From: an uncultured Smithella sp.
GTDB taxonomy: Bacteria > Desulfobacterota > Syntrophia > Syntrophales > Smithellaceae
Assembly (NCBI GenBank): GCA_964632255.1
Contig: CAZWCA010000004.1
Coordinates: 489 to 64,488 of the forward strand
DNA length: 64,000 bases
Direction: 5' to 3'
The notes under the pieces were generated by a model. It had not been told where the DNA came from, made no database searches, and saw only the letters and a program-made list of their open reading frames with translations. This document shows positions 14,387 through 61,426 of the stretch, in pieces. The position numbers and the translations under genes are program-made. Within the stretch, counting starts at the first letter, position 1; the number at the start of each line of letters is the position of its first letter.

Positions 14387-15166
14387 TTATTTCTTTATTC
14401 GATAGGGAAAACTAATAGAAATATTACTAAAGCCTTCCTCATTAAAAAAGTTAATTATTGCCTGATACTTATCAAAGAGCATCAGAGATAACAAAATTCC
14501 CTGATTAACGGCATCGGATACTTGATGGGAAACCGAATCCAAATTTTCCATTAAAGCCGCAAAATCAGTTGAAGGTTTGGAATTTATCGAGCTCTTAATC
14601 AATATACTTATGTATTTATCATCGTGATCCGTCTGAATAGTAAATTCTTTAAGCCGGCTTTCCCGCGCCTGAGTCATTGCAAAGCGAATAATTCTCCAAA
14701 AAGCCAATGACAAATCCGCCGTGTTCCCTTTAAATTCGGGAAGATCCTGATCTAATTGAATATCTTTTTTTATTTCATGCTTAAAATCCAGATAAAAATC
14801 AACAAAGCGCATTTCCGCCGCCAGTAATTGGGAAAAATTAATTCTGTCTTCATTTTTTGCGGCAAGTGCATAAAACTTACTTGCAACATCTTTGAACATA
14901 TCGAAGAAAGAATCGGATTCCTGACTGACGGCCCGGATATCCGTCCGGATGCGCTGCAGATCATCAGCCATTCCCGCCGCTACATCAGGATGATTTTCTT
15001 CCATCTTTTTTATGATATTTTCAATACGGCGCTGCAAAAGTTTTGACCTGCCCATTATACCGTTTAAAGGATTGGCAAAATTATGTAAAATACCGGGGAT
15101 GAGTTCATCAATAAAAGTTGCTGAAAAATCTTTCTCCAATGCCCGGTATATTTCGCCTTTATCCAT
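14387..15166 (-). CDS. Soluble HisKA-type protein with H-box but no recognisable ATP-binding boxes (pseudo-kinase or phosphatase candidate)
   Basis: H-box LHNFANPLNGIMGRSKLL. The region where the N-box is expected reads LSLAFWRIIRFAMTQA (no Asn). I found no DxGxG or GxGxG motifs in the C-terminal 90 aa. No TM segment. Confidence 0.55.
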   Translation of the reverse strand: MDKGEIYRALEKDFSATFIDELIPGILHNFANPLNGIMGRSKLLQRRIENIIKKMEENHPDVAAGMADDLQRIRTDIRAVSQESDSFFDMFKDVASKFYALAAKNEDRINFSQLLAAEMRFVDFYLDFKHEIKKDIQLDQDLPEFKGNTADLSLAFWRIIRFAMTQARESRLKEFTIQTDHDDKYISILIKSSINSKPSTDFAALMENLDSVSHQVSDAVNQGILLSLMLFDKYQAIINFFNEEGFSNISISFPYRIKK

Positions 15167-37949: not shown

Positions 37950-38330
37950 TTACTTAGCCTCGGTTAAAATATTTTTTATACCTTTGAATTTTCTGGACAA
38001 TAATTCAACATTAAAATTAAACATTAAATGATTTTCAGCTAAATTCGTCATTTCCTTATCTAAATCGGCTTTTTCATCAGATTTTACCAATTCAAAATCA
38101 TCTTTGGTAATTTCTTTCTTCGTGTTGGGAAAATGTTTCTCATTTGTTCTTGTCAGAGGAACTTTCATTTCTATGGCCCTACGCAGGTTCTCTTTGAATA
38201 CATAATCCGCCGCCTTATAATCAGCAGAGTCCAAGTTGCTGATATTAGAAGCTATCACCTTGTTACGTTCCGAACGGTAATCAAGCATGGTGGATAGTAA
38301 ATTAAATGTCTTCCCGAATAATGATTCCAT
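37950..38330 (-). CDS. flgB: Proximal rod protein FlgB
   Basis: LDYRSERNKVIASNISNLDSADYKA. First gene after a sigma-54 promoter. Confidence 0.92.
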   Translation of the reverse strand: MESLFGKTFNLLSTMLDYRSERNKVIASNISNLDSADYKAADYVFKENLRRAIEMKVPLTRTNEKHFPNTKKEITKDDFELVKSDEKADLDKEMTNLAENHLMFNFNVELLSRKFKGIKNILTEAK

Positions 38331-43898: not shown

Positions 43899-44438
43899 AT
43901 GGATGATCAGGATATACTAAACGATGAAAGTCAAAGACAATATTCACGTGTCGATGCTTACATCCCTCTGGAGTATAAATTAATAGATCCCGAACATAGG
44001 CAATATATGCGTTCCCGCGTGGCCGGAGATATAGTTCTTTCCGAATTCAAGTCTTTACCTGATCCTGACGATCAAATAATAGCTGAATGGTTGAAGACAA
44101 TTAACACCAAATTAAATACCATCATCCGTATGTTGACTATGCATCATGAAGGATTTGATCAAATGCCTTTAAGAAAAGTGAATATCAGCGGTGGTGGAAT
44201 CAGTTTTTCTGCGGATTCATCATTCACACCCGGAGAGATCATTGAATTCAAATTAATATTGACCATGCAATATCCTTTATCACTTTTTTTATACGGCGAA
44301 GTAATTGAAATATGCAACCACAATACTGAATACAATACATTTGTTCGATTTATCGCAATTGATGATTTTGTTCGGGATGAAATTATCAGATTTGTCTTTG
44401 AAAGGGAGAGGGAAATTCTTCGGGAAAAAAGGAAGTAG
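43899..44438 (+). CDS. PilZ-domain protein (candidate c-di-GMP receptor coupled to the stator genes)
   Basis: RxxxR motif (QRQYSRV, aa 12-18) and (D/N)xSxxG motif (NISGGGISF, aa 95-103). About 75 aa with a predicted helix (IIAEWLKTINTKLNTIIRMLT) lie between them. It is immediately upstream of motA. Confidence 0.8.
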   Translation: MDDQDILNDESQRQYSRVDAYIPLEYKLIDPEHRQYMRSRVAGDIVLSEFKSLPDPDDQIIAEWLKTINTKLNTIIRMLTMHHEGFDQMPLRKVNISGGGISFSADSSFTPGEIIEFKLILTMQYPLSLFLYGEVIEICNHNTEYNTFVRFIAIDDFVRDEIIRFVFEREREILREKRK

Positions 44439-44451
44439 CCCTAATTAATTC

Positions 44452-45321
44452 ATGTTTCCTATAATCGGCATTATCATTGTTACTGGCTGCGTAATCGGCG
44501 GTTATTTGCTGGAACACGGCAACATGTCCGTTATTTTTCAGCCCGTCGAATTTATGATTATCGGTGGTGCAGCTATCGGCAGCTTTGTTATAGCATCCCC
44601 AATCCATGTCATTAAATCCGTAATTTCTGCTTTTATCGGTCTGTTCAAACATTCACCCAGGAACAAGCAGGATTATATTGATATTCTAATGCTGCTCAAT
44701 GGAATTTTTTATAAAATAAGACAACAGGGACTTGTTTCTATCGAATCCGATGTAGATTCACCTCAGGAAAGTCCTTTATTTACAAAGTATCCCATTATAT
44801 TAAAAAATCATGCGGCGATTGATCTGATAACAGATACATTGCGTACAGTTATGACAACGACAATTGCCCCCCATGAACTGGAAGCACTCATCGACCACGA
44901 ATTGGAAACCCACCATGAAGAGGCGCTGATCCCTGCACATAGTGTTAACACCATCGCCGACGGACTCCCCGGTTTGGGAATTGTTGCCTGCGTTCTGGGA
45001 ATTGTTTTAACCATGGGTAAAATCAAGGAACCTCCTGAAATTTTGGGTGCCAGTGTCGGCGCCGCTCTGGTCGGAACATTCATGGGTGTTCTCTTATCTT
45101 ACGGTTATGTCGGCCCGATGGGAAAACATCTGGAATTTATTGCTGCAGAAGATCTGCAATATATGAATGTAATTAAAGTCGCCCTGCTCGCTTTCATCGG
45201 CGGTGGTGCCGCACCAAAAGTCGCAGTTGAATTCGGCCGCCGGGTTATACCGGCAAAAATGAAACCTTCTTTCATTGAAATGGAAGATGCATTCCGGGAA
45301 GCAAAGAAAATACAAGCATAA
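44452..45321 (+). CDS. motA: Stator protein MotA
   Basis: 289 aa, four TM segments, MotA/TolQ/ExbB channel region GLPGLGIVACVLGIVLTMG...ALVGTFMGVLLSYG. Confidence 0.93.
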   Translation: MFPIIGIIIVTGCVIGGYLLEHGNMSVIFQPVEFMIIGGAAIGSFVIASPIHVIKSVISAFIGLFKHSPRNKQDYIDILMLLNGIFYKIRQQGLVSIESDVDSPQESPLFTKYPIILKNHAAIDLITDTLRTVMTTTIAPHELEALIDHELETHHEEALIPAHSVNTIADGLPGLGIVACVLGIVLTMGKIKEPPEILGASVGAALVGTFMGVLLSYGYVGPMGKHLEFIAAEDLQYMNVIKVALLAFIGGGAAPKVAVEFGRRVIPAKMKPSFIEMEDAFREAKKIQA

Positions 45322-45361
45322 CCATGATAATAATGGAAACGATTAATTTTATAGGATTGAT

Positions 45362-46174
45362 ATGGATGAACGGCCTCAACCAATAATAATAAAGAAAAAA
45401 AAGAAACTTCAAAGCGGTGCCCATGGCGGATCATGGAAAGTTGCTTATGCCGACTTTGTAACGGCAATGATGGCTTTTTTTCTTATGCTTTGGCTTTTAA
45501 GCATGGTTTCCGAGGAAAAAAAAGCTGCTCTTTCCGAGTATTTTAATAAGTACAGTCTTTTTCAGGAAAGTGGTAGATCAGCAATAACCACTAAAAATGC
45601 AAAAGTGACTGATCCGAACTTTGTTACACCAATAAAAATGGAAGCTTCTTCCATGGCTTTACAGGGAAATAAATCAGGTGAAACCTTTCGTAGATTGAAA
45701 CAAAAAATAGAAATAAAAGACGAAGAATCAGTTAGAAAAATAAGAGCATCAATTGACAAAAAAATGGCCGGCTTTCGTGATCAAATTTTGGTTGATGTAG
45801 TTGAAGGAGGTATCAGAATTCAAATTATCGATACGGAAGGAAGTGAAATGTTTTCTTTGGGATCGGCACAGCCGACGCCAAAGGCAAAGGCAATATTGAA
45901 GCTTTTATCGGACAATATGAAAGAAATGCCCGGACGCATTATTGTCGAAGGTCACACCGATTCCGCGCCGTTTCAAAAAGGCAGGTCAACAAACTGGGAA
46001 CTCTCCACATCCCGGGCTTCATCGGCACGTAAATTACTGGAAGAAAACGGGATCGATTCGACAAGGATTGCCAGAGTTGTAGGTTATGCAGATACTGAAC
46101 TTTTGATCCCCCTTGATGCCCGGGATCCGCGCAACAGAAGGATCAGTCTTATTGTTCTGAATGCTAAAAATTAA
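45362..46174 (+). CDS. motB: Stator protein MotB
   Basis: GGSWKVAYADFVTAMMAFFLMLWLL carries the conserved Asp in the plug/TM region. The C-terminal OmpA-like domain reads EGHTDSAPF...NWELSTSRASSARKLL...NRRISL. Confidence 0.93.
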   Translation: MDERPQPIIIKKKKKLQSGAHGGSWKVAYADFVTAMMAFFLMLWLLSMVSEEKKAALSEYFNKYSLFQESGRSAITTKNAKVTDPNFVTPIKMEASSMALQGNKSGETFRRLKQKIEIKDEESVRKIRASIDKKMAGFRDQILVDVVEGGIRIQIIDTEGSEMFSLGSAQPTPKAKAILKLLSDNMKEMPGRIIVEGHTDSAPFQKGRSTNWELSTSRASSARKLLEENGIDSTRIARVVGYADTELLIPLDARDPRNRRISLIVLNAKN

Positions 46175-46321: not shown

Positions 46322-46783
46322 TTATTCTGCAAGACAGATATCCACAACAAAAACGCCTTCATTAATTTCAAAAGGAATAATTAAACTGGGGCCGCCCATA
46401 ACGTGAGCTATGGAATGATTCTTACCGGAAACAACAGTGGGAATAGCTGCTTGAATGTTAAATCCTTCCGCCTCCAAATTTTTCCGGGCCACACCGGAAA
46501 TCATGTTTGTAATCTCACCTACGGCATCTTTAATATCACCGTTAATTGATTTTATATCTTCTCCCAGCATATTGGATACTATCTTTAATATAGCACCCTC
46601 GCTGAAACTCAAGGCTAGAGATCCGGCGGCGGATCCCGTCAAACCGATAATGCCGGAAATGTCACCTTTAGCCAGACTGTCCATCTTCAGATAGGGTTTT
46701 CCAGCCCGAGGTTCTACGAAAGCCATTGTCTTTAAAACGCTTACAGTACCTTCAAGAAACGGATTAATAAATTTTACGTTCAT
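46322..46783 (-). CDS. cheX: CheX-type CheY-P phosphatase
   Basis: FINPFLEGTVSVLKTM...DISGIIGLTGSAAGSLALSF...DAVGEITNMISG. Confidence 0.82.
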   Translation of the reverse strand: MNVKFINPFLEGTVSVLKTMAFVEPRAGKPYLKMDSLAKGDISGIIGLTGSAAGSLALSFSEGAILKIVSNMLGEDIKSINGDIKDAVGEITNMISGVARKNLEAEGFNIQAAIPTVVSGKNHSIAHVMGGPSLIIPFEINEGVFVVDICLAE

Positions 46784-46817
46784 AAATTGCCTTTCTCATA
46801 TAAACACCGGACTTTTC

Positions 46818-47207
46818 TTATTTCTGTAAACCATCTATGATCTTCTTAATTTTCTCATTTAGCACTTCCGCCGTAAACGGCTTAACAATATAATTGTTTA
46901 CTCCGGCTTTTACAGCAGCAACTACATTGTCCTGCAGCGCTTCCGCGGTTACCATGAGAAAGGGCGTTTTCGCCAATTCAGCATCAGCCCGAACCGCCTT
47001 AAGCAATTCCAAACCTGACATATTCGGCATATTCCAATCGGAAACAACAAAATCAATCTTTTGCGATTTTAGAGCTTTTAGAGCCATAACACCATCTTCA
47101 GCTTCCACAATATCGTCATATCCGCTTTGCTTTAACAAGTTGCGGACGACCTTTCTCATTGTCGCAAAATCATCAACGACCAGGATTTTGAGATTTTTAT
47201 CACTCAT
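46818..47207 (-). CDS. cheY: Chemotaxis response regulator CheY
   Basis: KILVVDDFATMRK, phospho-acceptor VVSDWNMPNMSG, TAEA, NNYIVKPF. Confidence 0.93.
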   Translation of the reverse strand: MSDKNLKILVVDDFATMRKVVRNLLKQSGYDDIVEAEDGVMALKALKSQKIDFVVSDWNMPNMSGLELLKAVRADAELAKTPFLMVTAEALQDNVVAAVKAGVNNYIVKPFTAEVLNEKIKKIIDGLQK

Positions 47208-47245
47208 AATTCAACCTCGCTTTTATCTTTTCACGATAAAATTTA

Positions 47246-49450
47246 TTAACAACGTCCTTCACTTAATTCAAACAATCCTTCAATATCAATAATTAAACCG
47301 ATTCGTCCGTCACCCAAAATCGCACCGCCGGCAACACCTTTAATGCTCTTTAAACCTTCACCAAGGCTCTTGACGACCACTTCCGCTTTACCGACAATTT
47401 CATCAACAAGCAGGCATTTGGAACCGCTTTCGCTATCAACCACCACGACAATACCGTCCCACGGTTCTCTATGTTTTGGTTCGATATCAAAAATTTCATA
47501 AAGCCTGAGCAGAGGCATTAAACGGCCCATCGCATTGATCATTTCTCCCTTGCCGACTACGTTGGTGTAAGCATCAAGCGAAGGCCGCAGAGCCTGGCGT
47601 ATTGATATTGTCGGTAAAATGTAACTTTCAGCACCCACTTTCACGATCATGCCGTCAATGATGGCCAGTGTCAGCGGAAATCTCGTAATAAAAGTCGTTC
47701 CAATACCTAGGGAACTTTCAATTTCGATCTTGCCCCGTAATTTTTCTACAGCCTGCCGGACAACATCCATTCCAACACCACGACCGGATACATCGGTTAC
47801 CTTTTCCGCCGTAGATAAACCCGGCAGAAAAATAAACTTATATATTTCCTGATCGCTAAGGCCTTCATCGCTTTGAATCATTCCGTTTTTCAAAGCTTTT
47901 TGTAATATTTTGTTTTTATCAAGGCCTCTTCCGTCATCCGTTATTTCAATGACAATATTCCCTCCCCGGTGGTAAGCTTTCAGTTGAATCAAGCCTTTTT
48001 CAGTTTTGCCCAGCTTTATCCTTTCCTCAGGAGTTTCCAGGCCATGATCAACTGAATTACGGATCATATGGACAAGGGGATTATATATTTCATCAACCAT
48101 ATTTCTGTCTATTTCCGTATCTTCGCCGATCAGTTCCACAAAAACGGATTTACCGGTGTTTTTTGCCAGATCCCGAACAAGCCGGGACATGCGCTGAAAA
48201 GTCTGTTTGATCGGTATCATCCGGAGTGTTGTGGAAACCTGTTGCAGAGTCGATGTAATCCGGAAAAATTGTGAAATATCCCTTATGAGCTGTTTGTCGG
48301 CATTTACCTGATTATTCAAATCCTGCTGAATCATCGACTGGGTAATGACCAGTTCCCCCACCATATCAATCAAATCATCAAGCTTTGTTGTATCCACACG
48401 TATCGTGGTCATATCAGAGACTTGATCAGCCTGTTTCCGTAAAGCCTGTGAAAGCTGTTTAGGTTTTACTACTCCCTCCTCAATCAAAGCCCGGCCTATT
48501 TTTCTTTCCGGTGTAGCTTCATTTGCTCTTAAAGTCTTTTCCAGTTCTTCTTTGGAAATGACGCCATCATCGATCAGAATTTCACCGATTTTTTTGGGAC
48601 CCGATTCATTTTCAAATCCCTGCTCGATTTTCTTGATTCTTGCCTTTAGAGAAGGAACATCAACCACACTTTCGTCAAATTTCTTACCTTCCAGGATTTC
48701 CCGAAGCCCGCCGATTAATGTTTTTAGAACGTCAGCTCCGTCCAAAACCACATCAATGAGCATGGGTGTAACCGAGATTTCATCATTCCTGGCTTTATCC
48801 AGAAGGTTCTCCAGGCTGTGTGCCAAATCACGGATTTTTTCTAAATTAAGAAAACTGGCCACCCCTTTAATAGAATGAAACGGCCTGAATATTGTGTTAA
48901 TGTAATCCTTGTTTCCCGGTTCGTTTTCTAAATTTAAAATATTGACTTCAATTTCTTCAATATATTCCAATCCTTCTGCAATAAAATCTTTCAGCAGAGA
49001 TTCATCCTGGATTTGAAAGGACTCTTCCTTTTCCGCCAAAGTACTGCTCCCAGTATTTTCTGTGGATGGTGAAGAGTTTTCACTTGCAATAGTAATACCG
49101 GGAACTACAGCAGCTAATTTTCCCATAAATTCTTGAATATCACCGTCAAATTTGCCTGTATTTTTAAAATTGTCGGTAATTTGCTGCATTAAACGGATTC
49201 CCTCTTCCAGTAAATCAGCAGCCTTACTTTTATCAGGAATCGCATCAAGAATGACTTTTTCCAAAACCTGACTCAGACCCGTAGCGCAACTGTTTAACTG
49301 AGGTATTTTGATTTTCTCTGATTCATTACCGATGTTTTCCAGATGATTCAGCAGTTTTCCCGCTGTAGGAATATCAATATCTTTACAATCCAGGAAAAGA
49401 TATTCTTGAGCCAATGCATCCAGCAAGCTGATCATTTCATCATAGTCCAT
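47246..49450 (-). CDS. cheA: Chemotaxis histidine kinase CheA with atypical N-terminal extension and MshEN-like insert
   Basis: Hpt FRPFHSIKGVASFL (His ~192), dimerisation IRVDTTKLDDLIDMVGELV, HATPase (NSVDHGLE, DDGRGLD, GRGVGMDVV), and a C-terminal CheW-like domain. Confidence 0.93.
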   Translation of the reverse strand: MDYDEMISLLDALAQEYLFLDCKDIDIPTAGKLLNHLENIGNESEKIKIPQLNSCATGLSQVLEKVILDAIPDKSKAADLLEEGIRLMQQITDNFKNTGKFDGDIQEFMGKLAAVVPGITIASENSSPSTENTGSSTLAEKEESFQIQDESLLKDFIAEGLEYIEEIEVNILNLENEPGNKDYINTIFRPFHSIKGVASFLNLEKIRDLAHSLENLLDKARNDEISVTPMLIDVVLDGADVLKTLIGGLREILEGKKFDESVVDVPSLKARIKKIEQGFENESGPKKIGEILIDDGVISKEELEKTLRANEATPERKIGRALIEEGVVKPKQLSQALRKQADQVSDMTTIRVDTTKLDDLIDMVGELVITQSMIQQDLNNQVNADKQLIRDISQFFRITSTLQQVSTTLRMIPIKQTFQRMSRLVRDLAKNTGKSVFVELIGEDTEIDRNMVDEIYNPLVHMIRNSVDHGLETPEERIKLGKTEKGLIQLKAYHRGGNIVIEITDDGRGLDKNKILQKALKNGMIQSDEGLSDQEIYKFIFLPGLSTAEKVTDVSGRGVGMDVVRQAVEKLRGKIEIESSLGIGTTFITRFPLTLAIIDGMIVKVGAESYILPTISIRQALRPSLDAYTNVVGKGEMINAMGRLMPLLRLYEIFDIEPKHREPWDGIVVVVDSESGSKCLLVDEIVGKAEVVVKSLGEGLKSIKGVAGGAILGDGRIGLIIDIEGLFELSEGRC

Positions 49451-49452
49451 AC

Positions 49453-50520
<1,068 letters not shown>

Positions 50521-50641
50521 TTAAAAAAATCTTTTAAAGCAGCAGCGATTAGTGACTCTTGCATTTTCCGGGCCTTGCTTTTAAATTAATTTATAGAAAC
50601 TGCAAATGCCGGCCAAAATATTTGCGGCGATTGTCAGTTAA

Positions 50642-51094
50642 TTAAAAAAAATTCATCTTTACTCCCAGCAAGCCTTCACCTGATTCAAAACATAAATTCC
50701 ACATAGTCCCGCCTTTCGCTGCCTCCTGCGCTGCAAAGTCTAAGGTTTCATTTTTAAAAGCTGGAATTGAAAGATCAAATACTTTTGATGAATCATATTT
50801 TTGTAAAAAATTACCGGCGATCATGTTTGCAGACTCTTTTGCACAATCTTCGATCAGCCTGGTAGTTATGCTGTCTTCATCAATACTAAGCATATTTTGC
50901 ACCATAGCGGAGGCCAGATCGGCGGAAAGTAGAACATCGATAGTTCCTTTTACCGGACCGGTAAAGTTAATTGATGCAATCATGTCGCATTTGATATCTT
51001 CATCTACAGGCTCCAGAAAGACGAAGAACATTTTCTCAAATACCTCAAAAATCGCATTCGTCAGCAGCTCTTGTATCTTCTCCGTATTCTCCAT
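50642..51094 (-). CDS. Second CheX/CheC-like protein
   Basis: AIFEVFEKMFFVF...INFTGPVKGTIDVLL...AKESANMIAGNF. AGGAG RBS 9 nt before ATG 51094. It overlaps the upstream REC gene by 50 nt. Confidence 0.6.
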   Translation of the reverse strand: MENTEKIQELLTNAIFEVFEKMFFVFLEPVDEDIKCDMIASINFTGPVKGTIDVLLSADLASAMVQNMLSIDEDSITTRLIEDCAKESANMIAGNFLQKYDSSKVFDLSIPAFKNETLDFAAQEAAKGGTMWNLCFESGEGLLGVKMNFF

Positions 51095-51476
51095 TTTCGG
51101 AAACTCCTATAACTTGATGAAGGATTTTTTTTATATCTTCCGGCAAGAAAGGTTTTTTTATGAAGCCTTTTGCCCCCCGGTTGAAGGCTTCCTGCTTTCG
51201 CTCCGCACTTCCTTCAGTTGTAATCATGATTACCGGAATGTCTTTAAAAGTCTCATCCTTTTTTATTTGGTCAAGAAGTTCCAGACCATTTACTTCCGGC
51301 ATATTTATATCGGAAATTATTACATCAACCCAATTTTGAGAAAGAATTTCCAAGGCTTCCCTGCCATTTCCGGCCTCCAGGCATTGATTCATCCGGAATC
51401 CGGAAATAGTTACAATTTTTTTGATAACGGCCCTCATAGCATTGGAATCATCAACGATTAATACATTGAACGACAT
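51045..51476 (-). CDS. Single-domain CheY-like response regulator
   Basis: VLIVDDSNAMR, IISDINMPEVNG, MITTEG, FIKKPF. The C-terminal 20 aa is acidic and overlaps the next gene. Confidence 0.85.
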   Translation of the reverse strand: MSFNVLIVDDSNAMRAVIKKIVTISGFRMNQCLEAGNGREALEILSQNWVDVIISDINMPEVNGLELLDQIKKDETFKDIPVIMITTEGSAERKQEAFNRGAKGFIKKPFLPEDIKKILHQVIGVSENGEYGEDTRAADECDF

Positions 51477-51515
51477 AACGTTACCTTCCCTTTTTTATGT
51501 TCGATTATGTTATTG

Positions 51516-52367
51516 TCATATGATACTGATGAGTTCCCTGGCACGGTTCAAATCTTCAGTCAATAAAACCATGCTCATTTCCAAATCTTTCATCCTCAAA
51601 TTTAATTTCTTCAAAACCTGGCCTACGGCGCGGTACGACAGACCGTCAATTCCGCCGCCGACACCCAGCATTAAGCACGCCTGGTCGGCAATATAGACAA
51701 TCCAAGGCATCATCTTTTCTTCTTTTTCCAATAGATCCGGTCGATGATGATAAGATATGGCATCTACGATCTCCGCCGGAAATTTCCAGTATGAAGCAAT
51801 TTTTCCCCCTAAATCAGCATGGTTAATTCCTATGACAATCTCTTCCGCTTCTAAAAAAGATACTTTTTGGGTTGATACCAAAGCAGAGATTTTAACCAGC
51901 GCATCACGGACGAATTCACCCATGATTATTTTTCCTACATCATGAAGAAGAGCTGCTGTATAGAGAGTATTATCTTCCTCGCCGGTTATTTTTTTGGATA
52001 AAATCTGTGACATGAGCGCTACGGCCACGGAATGTTCCCATAAATCGGTCACTTTGTCGAAATAACCCGTAGCACCCTTTTTATAATATTTGGAAACACC
52101 CGCAATCTGAATCGCTCTTAATAAGTTTTTCTGCCCAAGATAGACCACGGCGTCGTTAATGTTACTGATTTTGTGCCGGGGCCCGAAATAGGCGGAATTG
52201 GCCATTTTTAAAATGTTTGCAGTAATGGAAGGATCAAATTTAATAACGTTGGCTACTTCATTGATCGAATAATCCGGATTTGTCAGCAGTTGCGCCACCT
52301 TGTTTCCGGTTGCCGGAAAAGCGGGGATTGTATTGATTGATTTTAATATACGATCTAGCGGCTTCAT
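51516..52367 (-). CDS. HDOD-domain signalling protein
   Basis: LPAFPATGNKVAQLL...VANVIKFDPSITANILKMANSAYFG...AVVYLG, and a degenerate HD region ALLHDVGKII. Confidence 0.8.
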   Translation of the reverse strand: MKPLDRILKSINTIPAFPATGNKVAQLLTNPDYSINEVANVIKFDPSITANILKMANSAYFGPRHKISNINDAVVYLGQKNLLRAIQIAGVSKYYKKGATGYFDKVTDLWEHSVAVALMSQILSKKITGEEDNTLYTAALLHDVGKIIMGEFVRDALVKISALVSTQKVSFLEAEEIVIGINHADLGGKIASYWKFPAEIVDAISYHHRPDLLEKEEKMMPWIVYIADQACLMLGVGGGIDGLSYRAVGQVLKKLNLRMKDLEMSMVLLTEDLNRARELISII

Positions 52368-52846
52368 AATTCTTTCATTTCACCTCCGGAACCACGAACA
52401 AATACTCTCCCAGTGGACATTTCCAGACGAATGGTCCGATTAAAATTCAATCCCGTGTCTTCCTTGTCGATCATGACATTGTTTTTCCAAAATATTTTCC
52501 GCATGGCCATAATATTCTTCTGTCCGATACGGAAAAAATTGGTGTCATCCAATATGCTGGCTCCTCCTGCAGCCTTGACAACCATTCTTCTTTTTTCAGC
52601 GCCTAACTTGTAACAGGACTTAAACAGGAGAGGAATTCCCGTATCGGCAAACATAGCCGGATTCTCTCTGGCCTTATTTTGATCAAGAGCAGATTCCGGC
52701 AACATGTAATGTAGAAGGCCGCCGACTTTAGCAATTGGATCAAAAACAACTATTCCGATACAGGAACCTAATGCATAGGTTATAATAACATCTTCCGCTT
52801 TACTACTCACCTTAATATCTGATATTCCTACAATCAAATCACTCAT
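52364..52846 (-). CDS. cheD: Chemoreceptor glutamine deamidase CheD
   Basis: ITYALGSCIGIVVFDPIAKVGGLLHYMLP with the catalytic Cys and His context. Confidence 0.9.
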   Translation of the reverse strand: MSDLIVGISDIKVSSKAEDVIITYALGSCIGIVVFDPIAKVGGLLHYMLPESALDQNKARENPAMFADTGIPLLFKSCYKLGAEKRRMVVKAAGGASILDDTNFFRIGQKNIMAMRKIFWKNNVMIDKEDTGLNFNRTIRLEMSTGRVFVRGSGGEMKEL

Positions 52847-52850
52847 ATAA

Positions 52851-53681
52851 TCACTTCTGATAAACGCTTGGTTCGATATATTTAAAAGGATGTTTGAGGC
52901 CGGTTAAGCTTTCCGAGTGCCCCACAAAAAAATAGCCGTCTTTTTTTAAACTTTCATAATATTTGTTAACCAGTTGGGTCTGGGTATATTTATCAAAGTA
53001 AATCATCACGTTACGGCAAAAAATTATATCAAAATTAGCTTCGAATGGAAATTTTTCCATCAGATTAAACCGTTGAAAGACAATTAAATCTCTTAAATTT
53101 TTTTTAACCTTATAGTATCCTTCAGAACGGCCCGTTCCTATCTGGAAATATTTCGCAAGGAGAGAAGAGTTGATTTTTTTAACTCTCTCTGCGGGATAAA
53201 TTGCCGAATGAGCTATTTTTAATACTTTTGTGGAAATATCCGTAGCAAGAATTCGAATGTCTAAAGGCCTTGACTGGGCTGCTTCTTTTATCGTTATGGC
53301 GATAGTGTACGGCTCCTCTCCTGTGGAACAGCCGGCAGACCAAATATTAAATTTGGGAATAGAACCGTGGGAATCAGCTTTTTCAAGCAGTGAAGATACT
53401 ATTACCTGCAACCTGGCAAAATGACTTTCTTCACGATAAAAAGACGTTAAATTGGTAGAAATGGAATCGATCATGGCGATCAATTCGTCTTTACCTTCTT
53501 CGGTCGTCACGTAATGACAATAGTCGGTGAAAGATTTATAGTTGCCTTCGCGCAATCTTTTGCCTAAACGGGCTTTAACTAATTCCTTCTTACCTTCATG
53601 CAGATTTATCCCGCACAATTCATAAACAAGCCTGCTGATCTTTCCAAAATCGCTATCTTTAAGTTCGGATATCATTGTCAA
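52851..53681 (-). CDS. cheR: Chemotaxis methyltransferase CheR
   Basis: TNLTSFYREESHF, SAM-binding IWSAGCSTGEEPYTIA, and IFCRNVMIYF. Confidence 0.94.
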   Translation of the reverse strand: MTMISELKDSDFGKISRLVYELCGINLHEGKKELVKARLGKRLREGNYKSFTDYCHYVTTEEGKDELIAMIDSISTNLTSFYREESHFARLQVIVSSLLEKADSHGSIPKFNIWSAGCSTGEEPYTIAITIKEAAQSRPLDIRILATDISTKVLKIAHSAIYPAERVKKINSSLLAKYFQIGTGRSEGYYKVKKNLRDLIVFQRFNLMEKFPFEANFDIIFCRNVMIYFDKYTQTQLVNKYYESLKKDGYFFVGHSESLTGLKHPFKYIEPSVYQK

Positions 53682-59113: not shown

Positions 59114-61426
59114 GTGCGGTTTGTAAATTTTATACCTCAGATTGTTATGGATGCAAATACCGGTGCCTTCATAGATTGTAATGAAGCCGCAGTTAAGATC
59201 TACGGATATGCCAGCAGAGGAGATTTTATAAATAAAACAATTTTCAATATTGATGAAAAATCTGCGCCGATCCGATATAACGGCTTGGCTTCAGCAACAG
59301 ATGTTCAGAAGCATATTCAATTATGCCTTAAAAATGGTTCGCATATCTTCGAACGGCGTCATCAGAGGCCTAATGGCGAGATATGGGATGCCGAAATTCA
59401 CTTGAAACTTTTCTATCGTAAGGGCAAACCCCTTATACAGTTCGCTCTTCATGACATCACCGCACGCAAACAGGCAGAGGAGGCCTCGAAGAGATCAGCT
59501 TATTTATACTGGTCAATTTTCGAAAATACAGGTGTTGCGAATATAGTCGTGCACGAAAACACAAAAATAATTCTGGCAAATCCTGAGTTTGAAATATTGT
59601 CCAGTTATTCTAAAAAAGAAATTGAAGGGAAAAAAAGATGGACGGAATTTTTTATCGAAGAGGATTTAAGCCGGATGAAGAAGTACAGTCAACTGCGAAG
59701 AACAAGTAAAGATATTGTACCGCGGAAGTATGAGTGTAGATTAAGAGACAGGCATGACAAAATAAAAGATATAGCCATTAGCTTTGACAGGATTCCCTGC
59801 ACAAAAGAAAGCATAATTTCCCTTCATGACATAACTGAACGTAAACAAGCCGAGAGAATTCTTCAGGAATCACAACGGAGACTGTCTGATATAATCGAAT
59901 TTTTGCCTGATGCTACTTTGATTATTGATAAGGACGGAAAAGTTATTGTCTGGAACCGGGCTATGGAGACCATGACCGGTGTTAAGAAAGAAGATATGCT
60001 GGGCAAGGGTAATTATGAGTACGCTCTGCCCTTTTATTCTGAAAGAAGACCTATCATAATTGATCTGGCCCTTCATCCGGACAAAGAAAGAGAAAAACAA
60101 TACACCACAATCCAGAGAAAGGGAAACCTGCTTTTTGGTGAATCCTTTACACCGAATCTGCCGCCAGGGGATATACATCTTTCCGCTACGGCATCTGTTC
60201 TTCGTAATGAGGAAGGTGAGATCATCGCAGCTATAGAATGCATCCGGAATAACACGGAACGTAAGAAATTAGAGGAACATTTAAAACGAGTGGAAAAGAT
60301 GGAGTCTCTGGGTACTCTGGCCGGCGGAGTTGCCCATGATCTAAACAATATTCTGGGAGTATTAATCGGATATTCTGAACTGCTTATTGAATCTCTGCCT
60401 GGAGATAGTTTTACCAGAAAGTACGCTGATAATATCCTGAAATCCAGCATGAAAGGAGCCGCCATAATCCAGGATCTTTTGATTTTAGCAAGGCGTGGTG
60501 TAAATGTTTCGGAAGTAGTTGATCTGAACAAACTGGTCCTTGATTATCTTAATTCACAAGAGTTTGAAAAACTTAAATCTTCTTATCCGAATGTAAAAAT
60601 ATCAACTGAACTCGAAACTGGATATTTGGATATTAAAGGCTCCCCCGTACATCTAAGCAAGACAGTCATGAACCTTGTTTCCAATGCGGCAGAAGCTATA
60701 TCAGGCAGGGGAAATGTGACAGTAAGAACGGAGAACCGCTACCTGGACCATCCTCTCCACAACTATGACGCCATACAGGAAGGTTACTATGCGGTTTTAG
60801 CTGTATCTGATACAGGCGATGGCATATCAACCCATGATTTGGAAAAAATATCCGAACCTTTTGATACGAAGAAAGTCATGGGAAGCGGAGCAGGTGTAGG
60901 TTTGGCTGTTGCTTGGGGAACGATAAAGGATCATAATGGTTATATTGATGTCCAAAGTAAAAAAGGAAAAGGAACCACCTTCACTCTCTACTTTCCCATT
61001 ATCAAAGAGGAAGCCGGAAAAATAAAAAAAGCAACATTACCTGATTCCAACATAAGCAAAGGGGAATCCATCCTTGTCGTTGATGATGTTAAAGAACAGC
61101 GTGAGCTGGCTATGGACATGCTGGAGAGCATGGGATACAGGGTTACGGCTGTTTCCAGTGGAGAAGAAGCAGTTGAATATATCAAACATAAGAAAGCTGA
61201 TCTGATCGTTTTGGATATGATCATGAAACCTGGGATTAACGGGCTGGAGACCTATCAGAAAATACTGGAATACAACCCTGGACAAAAAGCAATTATTGTT
61301 AGCGGTTTTTCTGAAACTGACCAGATCAGGAAAGTTCAAAAAATGGGTGCCGGAGCTTTCATTCAAAAGCCCTACACGATGGAGCAGATTAGCCTTGGAA
61401 TCAGGAAGGAACTGGATCGGAAATAA
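59114..61426 (+). CDS. Hybrid sensor histidine kinase (multiple PAS, HisKA, HATPase, REC)
   Basis: GTG start with an AAAGGAGAA RBS. Three PAS-like units each end in HDITxRKQAE(E). H-box VAHDLNNILGVL, N-box NLVSNAAEA, DTGDGI, GAGVGLAVA. REC domain (LIVLDMIMKPGING). Confidence 0.88.
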   Translation: MRFVNFIPQIVMDANTGAFIDCNEAAVKIYGYASRGDFINKTIFNIDEKSAPIRYNGLASATDVQKHIQLCLKNGSHIFERRHQRPNGEIWDAEIHLKLFYRKGKPLIQFALHDITARKQAEEASKRSAYLYWSIFENTGVANIVVHENTKIILANPEFEILSSYSKKEIEGKKRWTEFFIEEDLSRMKKYSQLRRTSKDIVPRKYECRLRDRHDKIKDIAISFDRIPCTKESIISLHDITERKQAERILQESQRRLSDIIEFLPDATLIIDKDGKVIVWNRAMETMTGVKKEDMLGKGNYEYALPFYSERRPIIIDLALHPDKEREKQYTTIQRKGNLLFGESFTPNLPPGDIHLSATASVLRNEEGEIIAAIECIRNNTERKKLEEHLKRVEKMESLGTLAGGVAHDLNNILGVLIGYSELLIESLPGDSFTRKYADNILKSSMKGAAIIQDLLILARRGVNVSEVVDLNKLVLDYLNSQEFEKLKSSYPNVKISTELETGYLDIKGSPVHLSKTVMNLVSNAAEAISGRGNVTVRTENRYLDHPLHNYDAIQEGYYAVLAVSDTGDGISTHDLEKISEPFDTKKVMGSGAGVGLAVAWGTIKDHNGYIDVQSKKGKGTTFTLYFPIIKEEAGKIKKATLPDSNISKGESILVVDDVKEQRELAMDMLESMGYRVTAVSSGEEAVEYIKHKKADLIVLDMIMKPGINGLETYQKILEYNPGQKAIIVSGFSETDQIRKVQKMGAGAFIQKPYTMEQISLGIRKELDRK

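Follow-up and report, generated by a model that had tools for sequence, protein, structure and literature searches.

The CheA chemotaxis kinase encoded in a stretch of DNA from an uncultured Smithella sp. carries a domain of the cyclic di-GMP (c-di-GMP) receptor type in front of its dimerisation domain. The stretch, referred to here as the window, comprises 64,000 nucleotides (GenBank assembly GCA_964632255.1, contig CAZWCA010000004.1, positions 489 to 64,488). We identified amino acids (aa) 287-340 of this CheA as a genuine MshEN_N domain, the four-helix N subdomain of the GSPII/MshEN c-di-GMP receptor. We consider it fairly probable that the complete picture holds, in which a genuine MshEN_N lies between P1 and P3 of a CheA without P2, binds c-di-GMP and alters kinase output. 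Fusions of MshEN_N to CheA have been tabulated previously (Wang et al. 2016, Nat Commun 7:12481; Suppl. Tables 4 and 6). Because these fusions were published in 2016 and a curated NCBIfam model exists, the idea of the fusion is not new, and for the window itself our results are a refinement of the annotation and not a discovery. The window CheA differs from the published fusions only by the missing P2 and by an added P1-like domain (pseudo-P1) at the N terminus, and this form is common in Syntrophia, Planctomycetota and other groups.

A four-helix MshEN_N domain between P1 and P3

The segment reads KIGEILIDDGVISKEELEKTLRAN-EATPER-KIGRALIEEGVVKPKQLSQALRKQ, with two 24-residue MshEN-type motifs separated by a spacer of six residues. 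An initial annotation, made from the letters of the window, had placed this motif pair at 48431-48592 and between the Hpt domain (His ~192) and the dimerisation domain of CheA. Both placements were correct: on the minus strand these positions map to the base onto aa 287-340, and Pfam locates Hpt at aa 152-244 and H-kinase_dim at aa 348-405. Copy 1 (aa 287-310; 48521..48592), delimited by the profile match and the motif scan described below, includes helices alpha1 and alpha2 and corresponds to R9-Q32 of Vibrio cholerae MshE (VcMshE). The spacer EATPER (aa 311-316) is read directly from the sequence at 48503..48520, and copy 2 (aa 317-340; 48431..48502), delimited by the profile match, includes helices alpha3 and alpha4 and corresponds to VcMshE R38-Q61. 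A spacer of ~5 residues had been taken as canonical. The tandem arrangement is as expected, but the spacer has six residues here; its length varies in the family of CheA homologues, most of which have 6-9 residues and a few 2-3.

We searched for the motif with the relaxed pattern [RKPN]hGxxhhxx[GAS]hhxxxxhxxxhxx[QNKRYWST] (Wang et al. 2016). Both copies matched, starting at aa 287 and aa 317. These were the only two occurrences in the six-frame translation (128,000 residues), and there was no further MshEN motif elsewhere in the window. When the CheA sequence was shuffled 20,000 times, a tandem pair never appeared and a single copy appeared 31 times. There were three deviations from the strict consensus, Lys in place of Arg at positions 287 and 317 and Asn in place of Gln at position 310. 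The sequence and the residue map to VcMshE therefore agree with the earlier description, in which both copies fit the hydrophobic, Gly and Leu positions, with Lys for the first Arg and Asn at the end of copy 1.

The same segment was recognized by profile searches. The NCBIfam model NF053729 (cyclic di-GMP-binding domain-containing protein, MshE-related) matched aa 287-340 along its full length (profile positions 1-53 of 53) with 46.3 bits, compared to a curated cut-off of 38 (E = 2.7e-12). The NCBIfam model of the c-di-GMP-activated glycosyltransferase NfrB gave a weak match to the same stretch. When aa 261-361 were compared to PDB sequences with phmmer (E<0.1), only MshEN-type proteins were recovered: Thermus thermophilus PilF (E = 1e-11), V. 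cholerae MshE (5HTL; E = 3e-5) and PilB ATPases. Two profile results count against the identification. Pfam T2SSE_N (PF05157) did not match whole CheA or the isolated fragment at E<=10, and DUF4388 was below threshold on the MshEN_N fragment (24.2 vs 25 bits). The miss by T2SSE_N is expected, because that model covers the N and C subdomains and only the N subdomain is found here; MshEN_C cannot be present, because 9 residues alone separate the motif from P3. Thus, of the T2SSE_N/MshEN profile matches anticipated in the initial annotation, the one to NF053729 was found, above cut-off and over the full length, and the one to Pfam T2SSE_N was not. Because a full MshEN domain was not detected, we have filed the segment as MshEN_N and not as a T2SSE_N domain.

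Structural prediction gave the same result. A model of aa 280-346 was made with AlphaFold2 from an alignment of 48 sequences of diverse CheA homologues. It had a predicted local distance difference test score (pLDDT) of 92.5 and four predicted helices, and the top 16 Foldseek matches in the PDB were all MshEN-type domains. The best match was 5HTL (MshE with c-di-GMP), with a query-normalized template modelling score (TMq) of 0.79-0.80 and a root mean square deviation (rmsd) of 0.8-1.2 Å over 57-59 columns, and the next were the c-di-GMP-bound PilF GSPII-B structures (8PDK and relatives).

The segment has only 54 aa, is helical and rich in Leu, Ile, Glu and Lys, and has no match to Pfam T2SSE_N, all of which would fit an ordinary amphipathic helical linker with a chance resemblance to the motif. 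We find this explanation hardly credible, and regard it as effectively refuted by four results: the match to NF053729 at E = 2.7e-12; the absence of the tandem motif from 20,000 shuffles and of the motif from the rest of the six-frame window; the confident, compact four-helix model, which superposes on 5HTL at ~1 Å; and two glycines that are invariant across 73 clusters of homologues (see below).

cheA is an open reading frame (ORF) of 734 aa on the minus strand (47246..49450; ORF list), with the order pseudo-P1, P1 (Hpt), MshEN_N, P3, P4, P5. Its identity is established by the Pfam Hpt, H-kinase_dim, HATPase_c and CheW models and by NCBIfam CheA models, and proteins 91%-100% identical to it carry the name CheA of Smithella sp. 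P1 with its His, P3, P4 and P5 follow each other in the order of a CheA histidine kinase, all with Pfam scores above the gathering scores. P1 covers aa 152-~279 (48614..48997; Pfam Hpt, 52.5 bits). Its phospho-acceptor His192 lies within FRPFHSIKG, and F188, R189, H192, K195 and G196 are invariant or nearly so among 73 diverse homologues. A conserved segment at aa 262-279, of which aa 264-279 are conserved in orthologues, is probably the fifth P1 helix. P3, the dimerisation domain, covers aa 348-405 (48236..48409; Pfam H-kinase_dim), the ATP-binding kinase domain P4 aa 457-594 (47669..48082; Pfam HATPase_c, 58.5 bits) and the CheW-like domain P5 aa 600-728 (47267..47653; Pfam CheW, 69.9 bits).

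P2 had been described as missing from the place where it should be, and Pfam P2 (PF07194) indeed gave no match to the window CheA even at E<=10. The gap between the Hpt profile and MshEN_N is only ~36 aa, with ~7 residues between the likely end of P1 (aa 279) and MshEN_N, and 9 residues lead from the last Gln of MshEN_N to P3. P2 is typical of CheA but not universal, and it is not a defining feature. An antisense ORF with a TTG start (48552..48878, plus strand, 108 aa) overlaps the motif region. We rejected it as a shadow of the strongly conserved cheA frame that is most likely no gene.

Ligand-contact residues and expected ligand

We used the phmmer alignment with MshE to map residues of VcMshE onto CheA. 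In copy 1, R9, L10, G11, G18, L25, L29 and Q32 of VcMshE correspond to K287, I288, G289, G296, L303, L307 and N310, and in copy 2, R38, L39, G40, G47, L54, L58 and Q61 correspond to K317, I318, G319, G326, L333, L337 and Q340. The Gly at motif position 3 is present in both copies (G289 and G319, for VcMshE G11 and G40). Both guanine-stacking triangles are also present (I288/L303/L307 and I318/L333/L337, for VcMshE L10/L25/L29 and L39/L54/L58), and the CheA family retains L, I, V or M in the triangle columns. In VcMshE, mutating any conserved hydrophobic residue costs >10-fold in affinity, the G11L and G40I mutants lose binding, and changes at Arg9, Asp12 and Gln32 have a <5-fold effect (Wang et al. 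2016). Every hydrophobic and Gly position that was critical in that work is conserved in kind in CheA. The loss of binding by the related domain of XpsE has been blamed on the substitutions G11V, I19R, L29R, R38G, G40L, L54H, L58C and Q61V, none of which is found in the window CheA.

These positions are under strong constraint. In the 120 closest homologues (>=69% identity; named Smithella, Smithellaceae or Syntrophaceae), G289, G319, L292, L322, L337 and Q340 were conserved at 100%. To look further, we searched 1.84 billion cluster representatives exhaustively with HMMER, using aa 283-410 (MshEN_N and P3) as the query. There were 188 clusters at E<=1e-10, most of them with a single alignment over both domains in proteins of 600-1100 aa. 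Conservation was then scored in 73 full-length CheAs, the query and 72 cluster representatives that are 31-57% identical to it. G289 and G319 were invariant; L292, L322, Q340 and a Gln at position 310 were conserved at >=90% and L337 at >=88%; and motif position 1 was mostly Lys.

The Lys at position 1 is also found in known receptors. In GSPII-B of T. thermophilus PilF, the dissociation constant (KD) for c-di-GMP is 6 nM with the native K167 and 150 nM for K167R, and other high-affinity domains also have Lys at this position. Since the native Lys gives the higher affinity in PilF GSPII-B, the change of Arg to Lys in CheA should be harmless. The four-helix N-subdomain, c-di-GMP-bound in PilF, is a further likeness between PilF GSPII-B (8PDK), our second-best structural match, and CheA. 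PilF GSPII-B differs in having Leu at position 1 of copy 2, a copy 2 that is one residue shorter and a location in a triple GSPII array on a pilus ATPase. VcMshE MshEN (5HTL) shares with CheA the tandem 24-residue motif, the fold predicted for CheA, the hydrophobic and Gly contacts and 32-33% identity. In VcMshE, both copies begin with Arg (position 1) and end with Gln (position 24), the spacer has 5 residues, MshEN_C is present and the output is an ATPase of type II secretion or type IV pili, whereas the window CheA has Lys/Lys, Asn/Gln, a 6-residue spacer, no MshEN_C and a histidine kinase as output. By analogy with these receptors, the window CheA would be expected to bind c-di-GMP.

There is a precedent for binding in another CheA. 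A fragment (261-390) of Aeromonas veronii CheA (EKB11881), whose motifs are of the MLG/KLG type, has a KD of 2.6 µM for c-di-GMP (Wang et al. 2016). Both CheAs have a single four-helix MshEN_N directly upstream of P3, and in both, copy 2 starts with Lys (KLG in A. veronii) and the spacer is >5 residues. In A. veronii CheA, in contrast, P1 is at the very N-terminus and a CheY-binding P2 precedes MshEN_N, whereas the window CheA has no P2, ~36 residues between the Hpt profile and MshEN_N, and an extra P1-like N-terminal domain without the His. Both layouts occur in public genomes. As in the fusions of Wang et al., MshEN_N in the window CheA is immediately N-terminal to H-kinase_dim. The layout that they list, with an N-terminal HPT and with P2 between HPT and MshEN_N, is not the one found here, and the sub-architecture of the window CheA is not in that table but is common in databases.

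Several observations speak against c-di-GMP as an input to this kinase. More than 90% of the CheA family has Gln at the position of Asn310, and the position drifts among K, N, S and T in close orthologues. The equivalent PilF mutation, Q190E, costs 158-fold in affinity, with binding persisting at ~1 µM. A consensus motif is not sufficient for binding, as PilF GSPII-A is a non-binder, and Deinococcus geothermalis PilB_3 had no detectable c-di-GMP binding (Wang et al. 2016). Binding by the A. veronii CheA fragment, at 2.6 µM, is rather weak. There were no GGDEF, EAL or HD-GYP signatures in the long ORFs of the window and no Rfam families, including the c-di-GMP riboswitch, in the window. Our literature search returned no binding or activity data for the window CheA or for any full-length MshEN-CheA, and no follow-up to the 2016 report on an effect of c-di-GMP on CheA activity; other apparent hits were authors named Chea or Cheang, or mentions of CheA in other contexts. 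In PilF, only the double Gln mutant abolishes binding. Judged from the sequence, Asn310 appears to be the one real weakness of the CheA site, and a mild deviation.

Some of these observations could also mean that the MshEN_N fold is real but does not bind a nucleotide, an ability that it lost or never had, and that it serves instead as a rigid spacer or as a docking module for proteins such as CheY, CheX, the neighbouring PilZ protein or pseudo-P1. Non-binders with near-consensus motifs exist (PilF GSPII-A, XpsE and D. geothermalis PilB_3), and in the window CheA the family Gln has been replaced by Asn310, at a position that drifts in the Smithella lineage. MshEN_N also occupies the place of P2, which is a CheY-docking module in other CheAs. 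Xanthomonas PilB binds PilZ through an MshEN-like N-domain, and Foldseek also found the X. citri PilB(N)-PilZ complexes 7lkm, 7lkn and 7lko; these matches were much weaker, however, with 18-19% identity and an rmsd of ~3 Å. The residues that explain non-binding by XpsE are all intact in the window CheA, and MshEN_C, which helps to block binding in PilF GSPII-A, is absent. In addition, a homologous CheA fragment binds c-di-GMP, and purifying selection has acted precisely at the ligand-contact positions over very large phylogenetic distances. We consider a domain without a nucleotide unlikely.

It is also conceivable that MshEN_N senses another cyclic dinucleotide, such as 3',3'-cyclic GMP-AMP (3',3'-cGAMP). 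Some deltaproteobacteria (Desulfobacterota) use cGAMP signalling, and the two motif copies are not equivalent (Asn310 vs Gln340), so an asymmetric ligand can be imagined. VcMshEN_N binds cGAMP detectably, with a KD of 3.3e-4 M, but in this only measured case c-di-GMP is bound ~600-fold more tightly. Both guanine-stacking clusters are intact in CheA, the family consensus is Gln in both copies, and there is a canonical PilZ gene nearby. Together, these points make cGAMP a very improbable ligand, and c-di-GMP is the ligand that we favour.

Layout classes and proposed coupling to the kinase

The initial annotation had called for a survey of CheA homologues for the same insert, and this survey showed the MshEN_N insert to be widespread. 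The literal strict pattern misses many true family members, and the census of homologues was done with hidden Markov model and NCBIfam scans instead of a strict regular expression. We ran NCBIfam and Pfam family scans on 60 of the 73 full-length CheAs. NF053729 matched in all 60, T2SSE_N in none, and Pfam P2 in one, leaving 59 without it. In the full set of 73, the gap between the Hpt profile and MshEN_N was just 34-60 aa in 69 proteins, there were >=130 residues before Hpt in 67, and the linker from MshEN_N to P3 was 7-19 aa in most.

Two layouts were distinguished in a profile scan of one genome per species. Class A has the order pseudo-P1, P1, MshEN_N, P3 and was found in Smithella, Syntrophales, Syntrophorhabdus, Syntrophobacteraceae, Planctomycetota and others. 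Class B has P1 at the N-terminus, then ~150 aa that could accommodate P2, MshEN_N and P3, and was found in Nitrospira, Methylomirabilis, Actinoplanes/Virgisporangium, Desulfoluna and Insolitispirillum (loci L018-L023, L026, L036, L042, L046, L060 and L074). Class A, without P2 and with pseudo-P1, was the predominant form among the retrieved homologues, a predominance that may be biased because the census was seeded with the query. The window CheA belongs to this widespread class of flagellar-type CheA with the class A layout and no P2. The predominance of class A in the query-biased set and the strong conservation of ligand contacts there could help in choosing an experimental model.

The search with aa 283-410 also recovered five proteins of ~1160-1184 aa (P0125, P0129, P0131, P0132 and P0172) that have three Hpt - MshEN_N - MshEN_N repeats and no kinase core. 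They end in TSP3_bac or dockerin-like calcium-binding repeats, an odd mix of phosphorelay and c-di-GMP modules.

Class A proteins have an additional region in front of P1. The N-terminal extension of ~150 aa before Hpt had been noted as free of recognizable motifs. It is real, and searches with the N-terminal 150 aa gave no match at the sequence level: comparison to the protein's own Hpt profile with hhalign gave a probability of 0.4%, and nothing was found with phmmer in the PDB or with Pfam. An AlphaFold model from an alignment of 30 sequences had a pLDDT of 89.6 and helices at 4-18, 27-47, 50-67, 74-98 and 105-115. The top Foldseek matches to this model in the PDB were CheA P1 domains (1i5n, 3kyi and 8c5v_C; TMq 0.70-0.78, prob 1.00), with a TMq of 0.78 and an rmsd of 2.1 Å for 8c5v chain C. 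The first ~120 aa (49091..49450, minus strand) are thus predicted to form a P1-like five-helix bundle that is degenerate. In the helix that corresponds to the phospho-acceptor helix, His36 is the sole histidine, and orthologues have N, Y, Q, F, R, D or K in its place; we therefore regard the extension as a degenerate pseudo-P1 without a conserved phospho-acceptor His. A low-complexity linker rich in Ser, Thr and Glu (aa ~121-150, same strand) follows it. Pseudo-P1 is a conserved first domain in many MshEN_N-CheAs, and longer relatives have a second recognizable Hpt between pseudo-P1 and the functional P1.

P3 is a helical hairpin, and its N-terminus and the P3-P4 linker leave from the same end. 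Because of this geometry and of the short linkers (~9 residues to P3 and ~7 to P1), MshEN_N should be located at the end of the P3 hairpin, beside the hinge that controls P4. We infer that MshEN_N is structurally coupled to P1 and P4, and that it would take the place of the long flexible tethers through which P1 normally reaches P4. One monomeric c-di-GMP would bind between the two motif copies, in the manner seen in 5HTL or 8PDK. Each guanine would be sandwiched between a Leu/Ile triangle (I288/L303/L307 or I318/L333/L337) and the aliphatic part of Lys287 or Lys317, with G289, G319, Gln340 and, more weakly, Asn310 contacting the base edge and the ribose-phosphate.

Given the position of MshEN_N next to the P4 hinge, autophosphorylation or phosphotransfer would be expected to change if the ligand stiffens or repositions the domain. 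Ligand binding would change how P1 is presented to the ATP site of P4, and as a result CheY/CheB phosphorylation and flagellar switching would follow cellular c-di-GMP. The window CheA would in this way change its kinase output in response to c-di-GMP. Our guess is a lower output at high c-di-GMP, with a sign that cannot be deduced from sequence. In class A, c-di-GMP may directly gate CheA autophosphorylation or P1 delivery by allostery, which we propose tentatively, at somewhat less than even chances. Pseudo-P1 could compete or act as an autoinhibitor, engaging in a ligand-dependent manner.

The known links between c-di-GMP and chemotaxis are at the motor (YcgR-type PilZ proteins), a methyltransferase (MapZ), receptors and phosphatases; a receptor domain in CheA would place the second messenger at the central kinase. 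These other routes include the PilZ adaptor MapZ acting on CheR1, the PilZ-containing chemoreceptors Cbp1 and Tlp1, and V. cholerae PlzC acting with CheX. They couple the level of c-di-GMP to chemotactic signalling, as we propose for the window CheA, but through PilZ domains on a methyltransferase, receptor or phosphatase, whereas the window CheA has a non-PilZ receptor domain within the kinase itself. If this allosteric gating is real, many flagellar chemotaxis kinases from a wide range of phyla (Syntrophia, Planctomycetota, Acidobacteriota and others) would read the motile-sessile messenger at the kinase and not through PilZ adaptors.

Genomic neighbourhood

cheA is part of a che operon on the minus strand (46322..53681) with the order CheR-CheD-HDOD-CheY-CheX-CheB-CheA-CheY-CheX. 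Upstream of cheA (49453..53681), Pfam identified CheR, CheD, an HDOD protein (51516..52367), a second CheY, a second CheX-like protein and CheB. Downstream are CheY (46818..47207; Pfam Response_reg) and the CheX phosphatase (46322..46783; Pfam CheX). The operon thus has two CheY genes and two genes for CheX-type phosphatases in addition to CheD and the HDOD protein. The ORFs of the second CheY (51045..51476) and the second CheX (50642..51094) overlap by 50 nt as listed. Loci L001-L007 of Smithella and Syntrophales have the same set of che genes beside their cheA orthologue. A hidden Markov model derived from CheA P5 detected no CheW-like ORF in the window.

Convergent to the che operon is a PilZ-MotA-MotB cluster on the plus strand (43899..46174; Pfam PilZ, MotA_N/MotA_ExbB and MotB_plug/OmpA). 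The PilZ gene (43899..44438, plus strand; 179 aa) is directly upstream of motA and motB, as the initial annotation had it, and its product scored 31.6 bits with Pfam PilZ, compared to a cut-off of 22.5. The protein has N95xSxxG and RxxxR motifs, with a Pfam alignment to aa 93-168 only. The candidates for RxxxR, R13-R17 and R34-R38, are 57-78 residues upstream of N95xSxxG, compared to the usual ~20-30. This spacing and the partial Pfam alignment suggest a helical insertion within the PilZ domain. From its sequence, the protein may be a stator brake like YcgR or MotI. Because a PilZ protein with binding motifs is encoded in the motility cluster, c-di-GMP signalling is evidently used there, independently of CheA. 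PilZ-MotA-MotB would appear, as far as sequence can tell, to be a second and independent entry point of c-di-GMP into motility that is not part of CheA. The PilZ neighbour had been taken, together with the motif pair, as a sign of direct c-di-GMP input into the kinase. The domain identity and the probable ligand are supported by our results, but the PilZ gene is circumstantial and speaks for the motility cluster, not for CheA. A PilZ-MotA-MotB set is again adjacent to cheA at the Nitrospira class B loci L018 and L021.

At a larger scale, cheA lies within a flagellar and chemotaxis supercluster. Other members identified with Pfam are a flagellin-like protein of 842 aa (Flagellin_N/C), FlgK, FlgN, FlgI, a FliK-like protein, FliL, a sigma-70-family factor, FliF and sigma-54 activators. 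Two minus-strand ORFs in the flagellar cluster, at 14387..15166 (259 aa) and 37950..38330 (126 aa), had no Pfam match at the thresholds used. A hybrid kinase on the plus strand (59114..61426), with a PAS-PAS-HisKA-HATPase-REC layout and no GGDEF, had a sub-threshold match to a 'diguanylate cyclase-like sensor domain', at 25.6 bits compared to a cut-off of 28.1.

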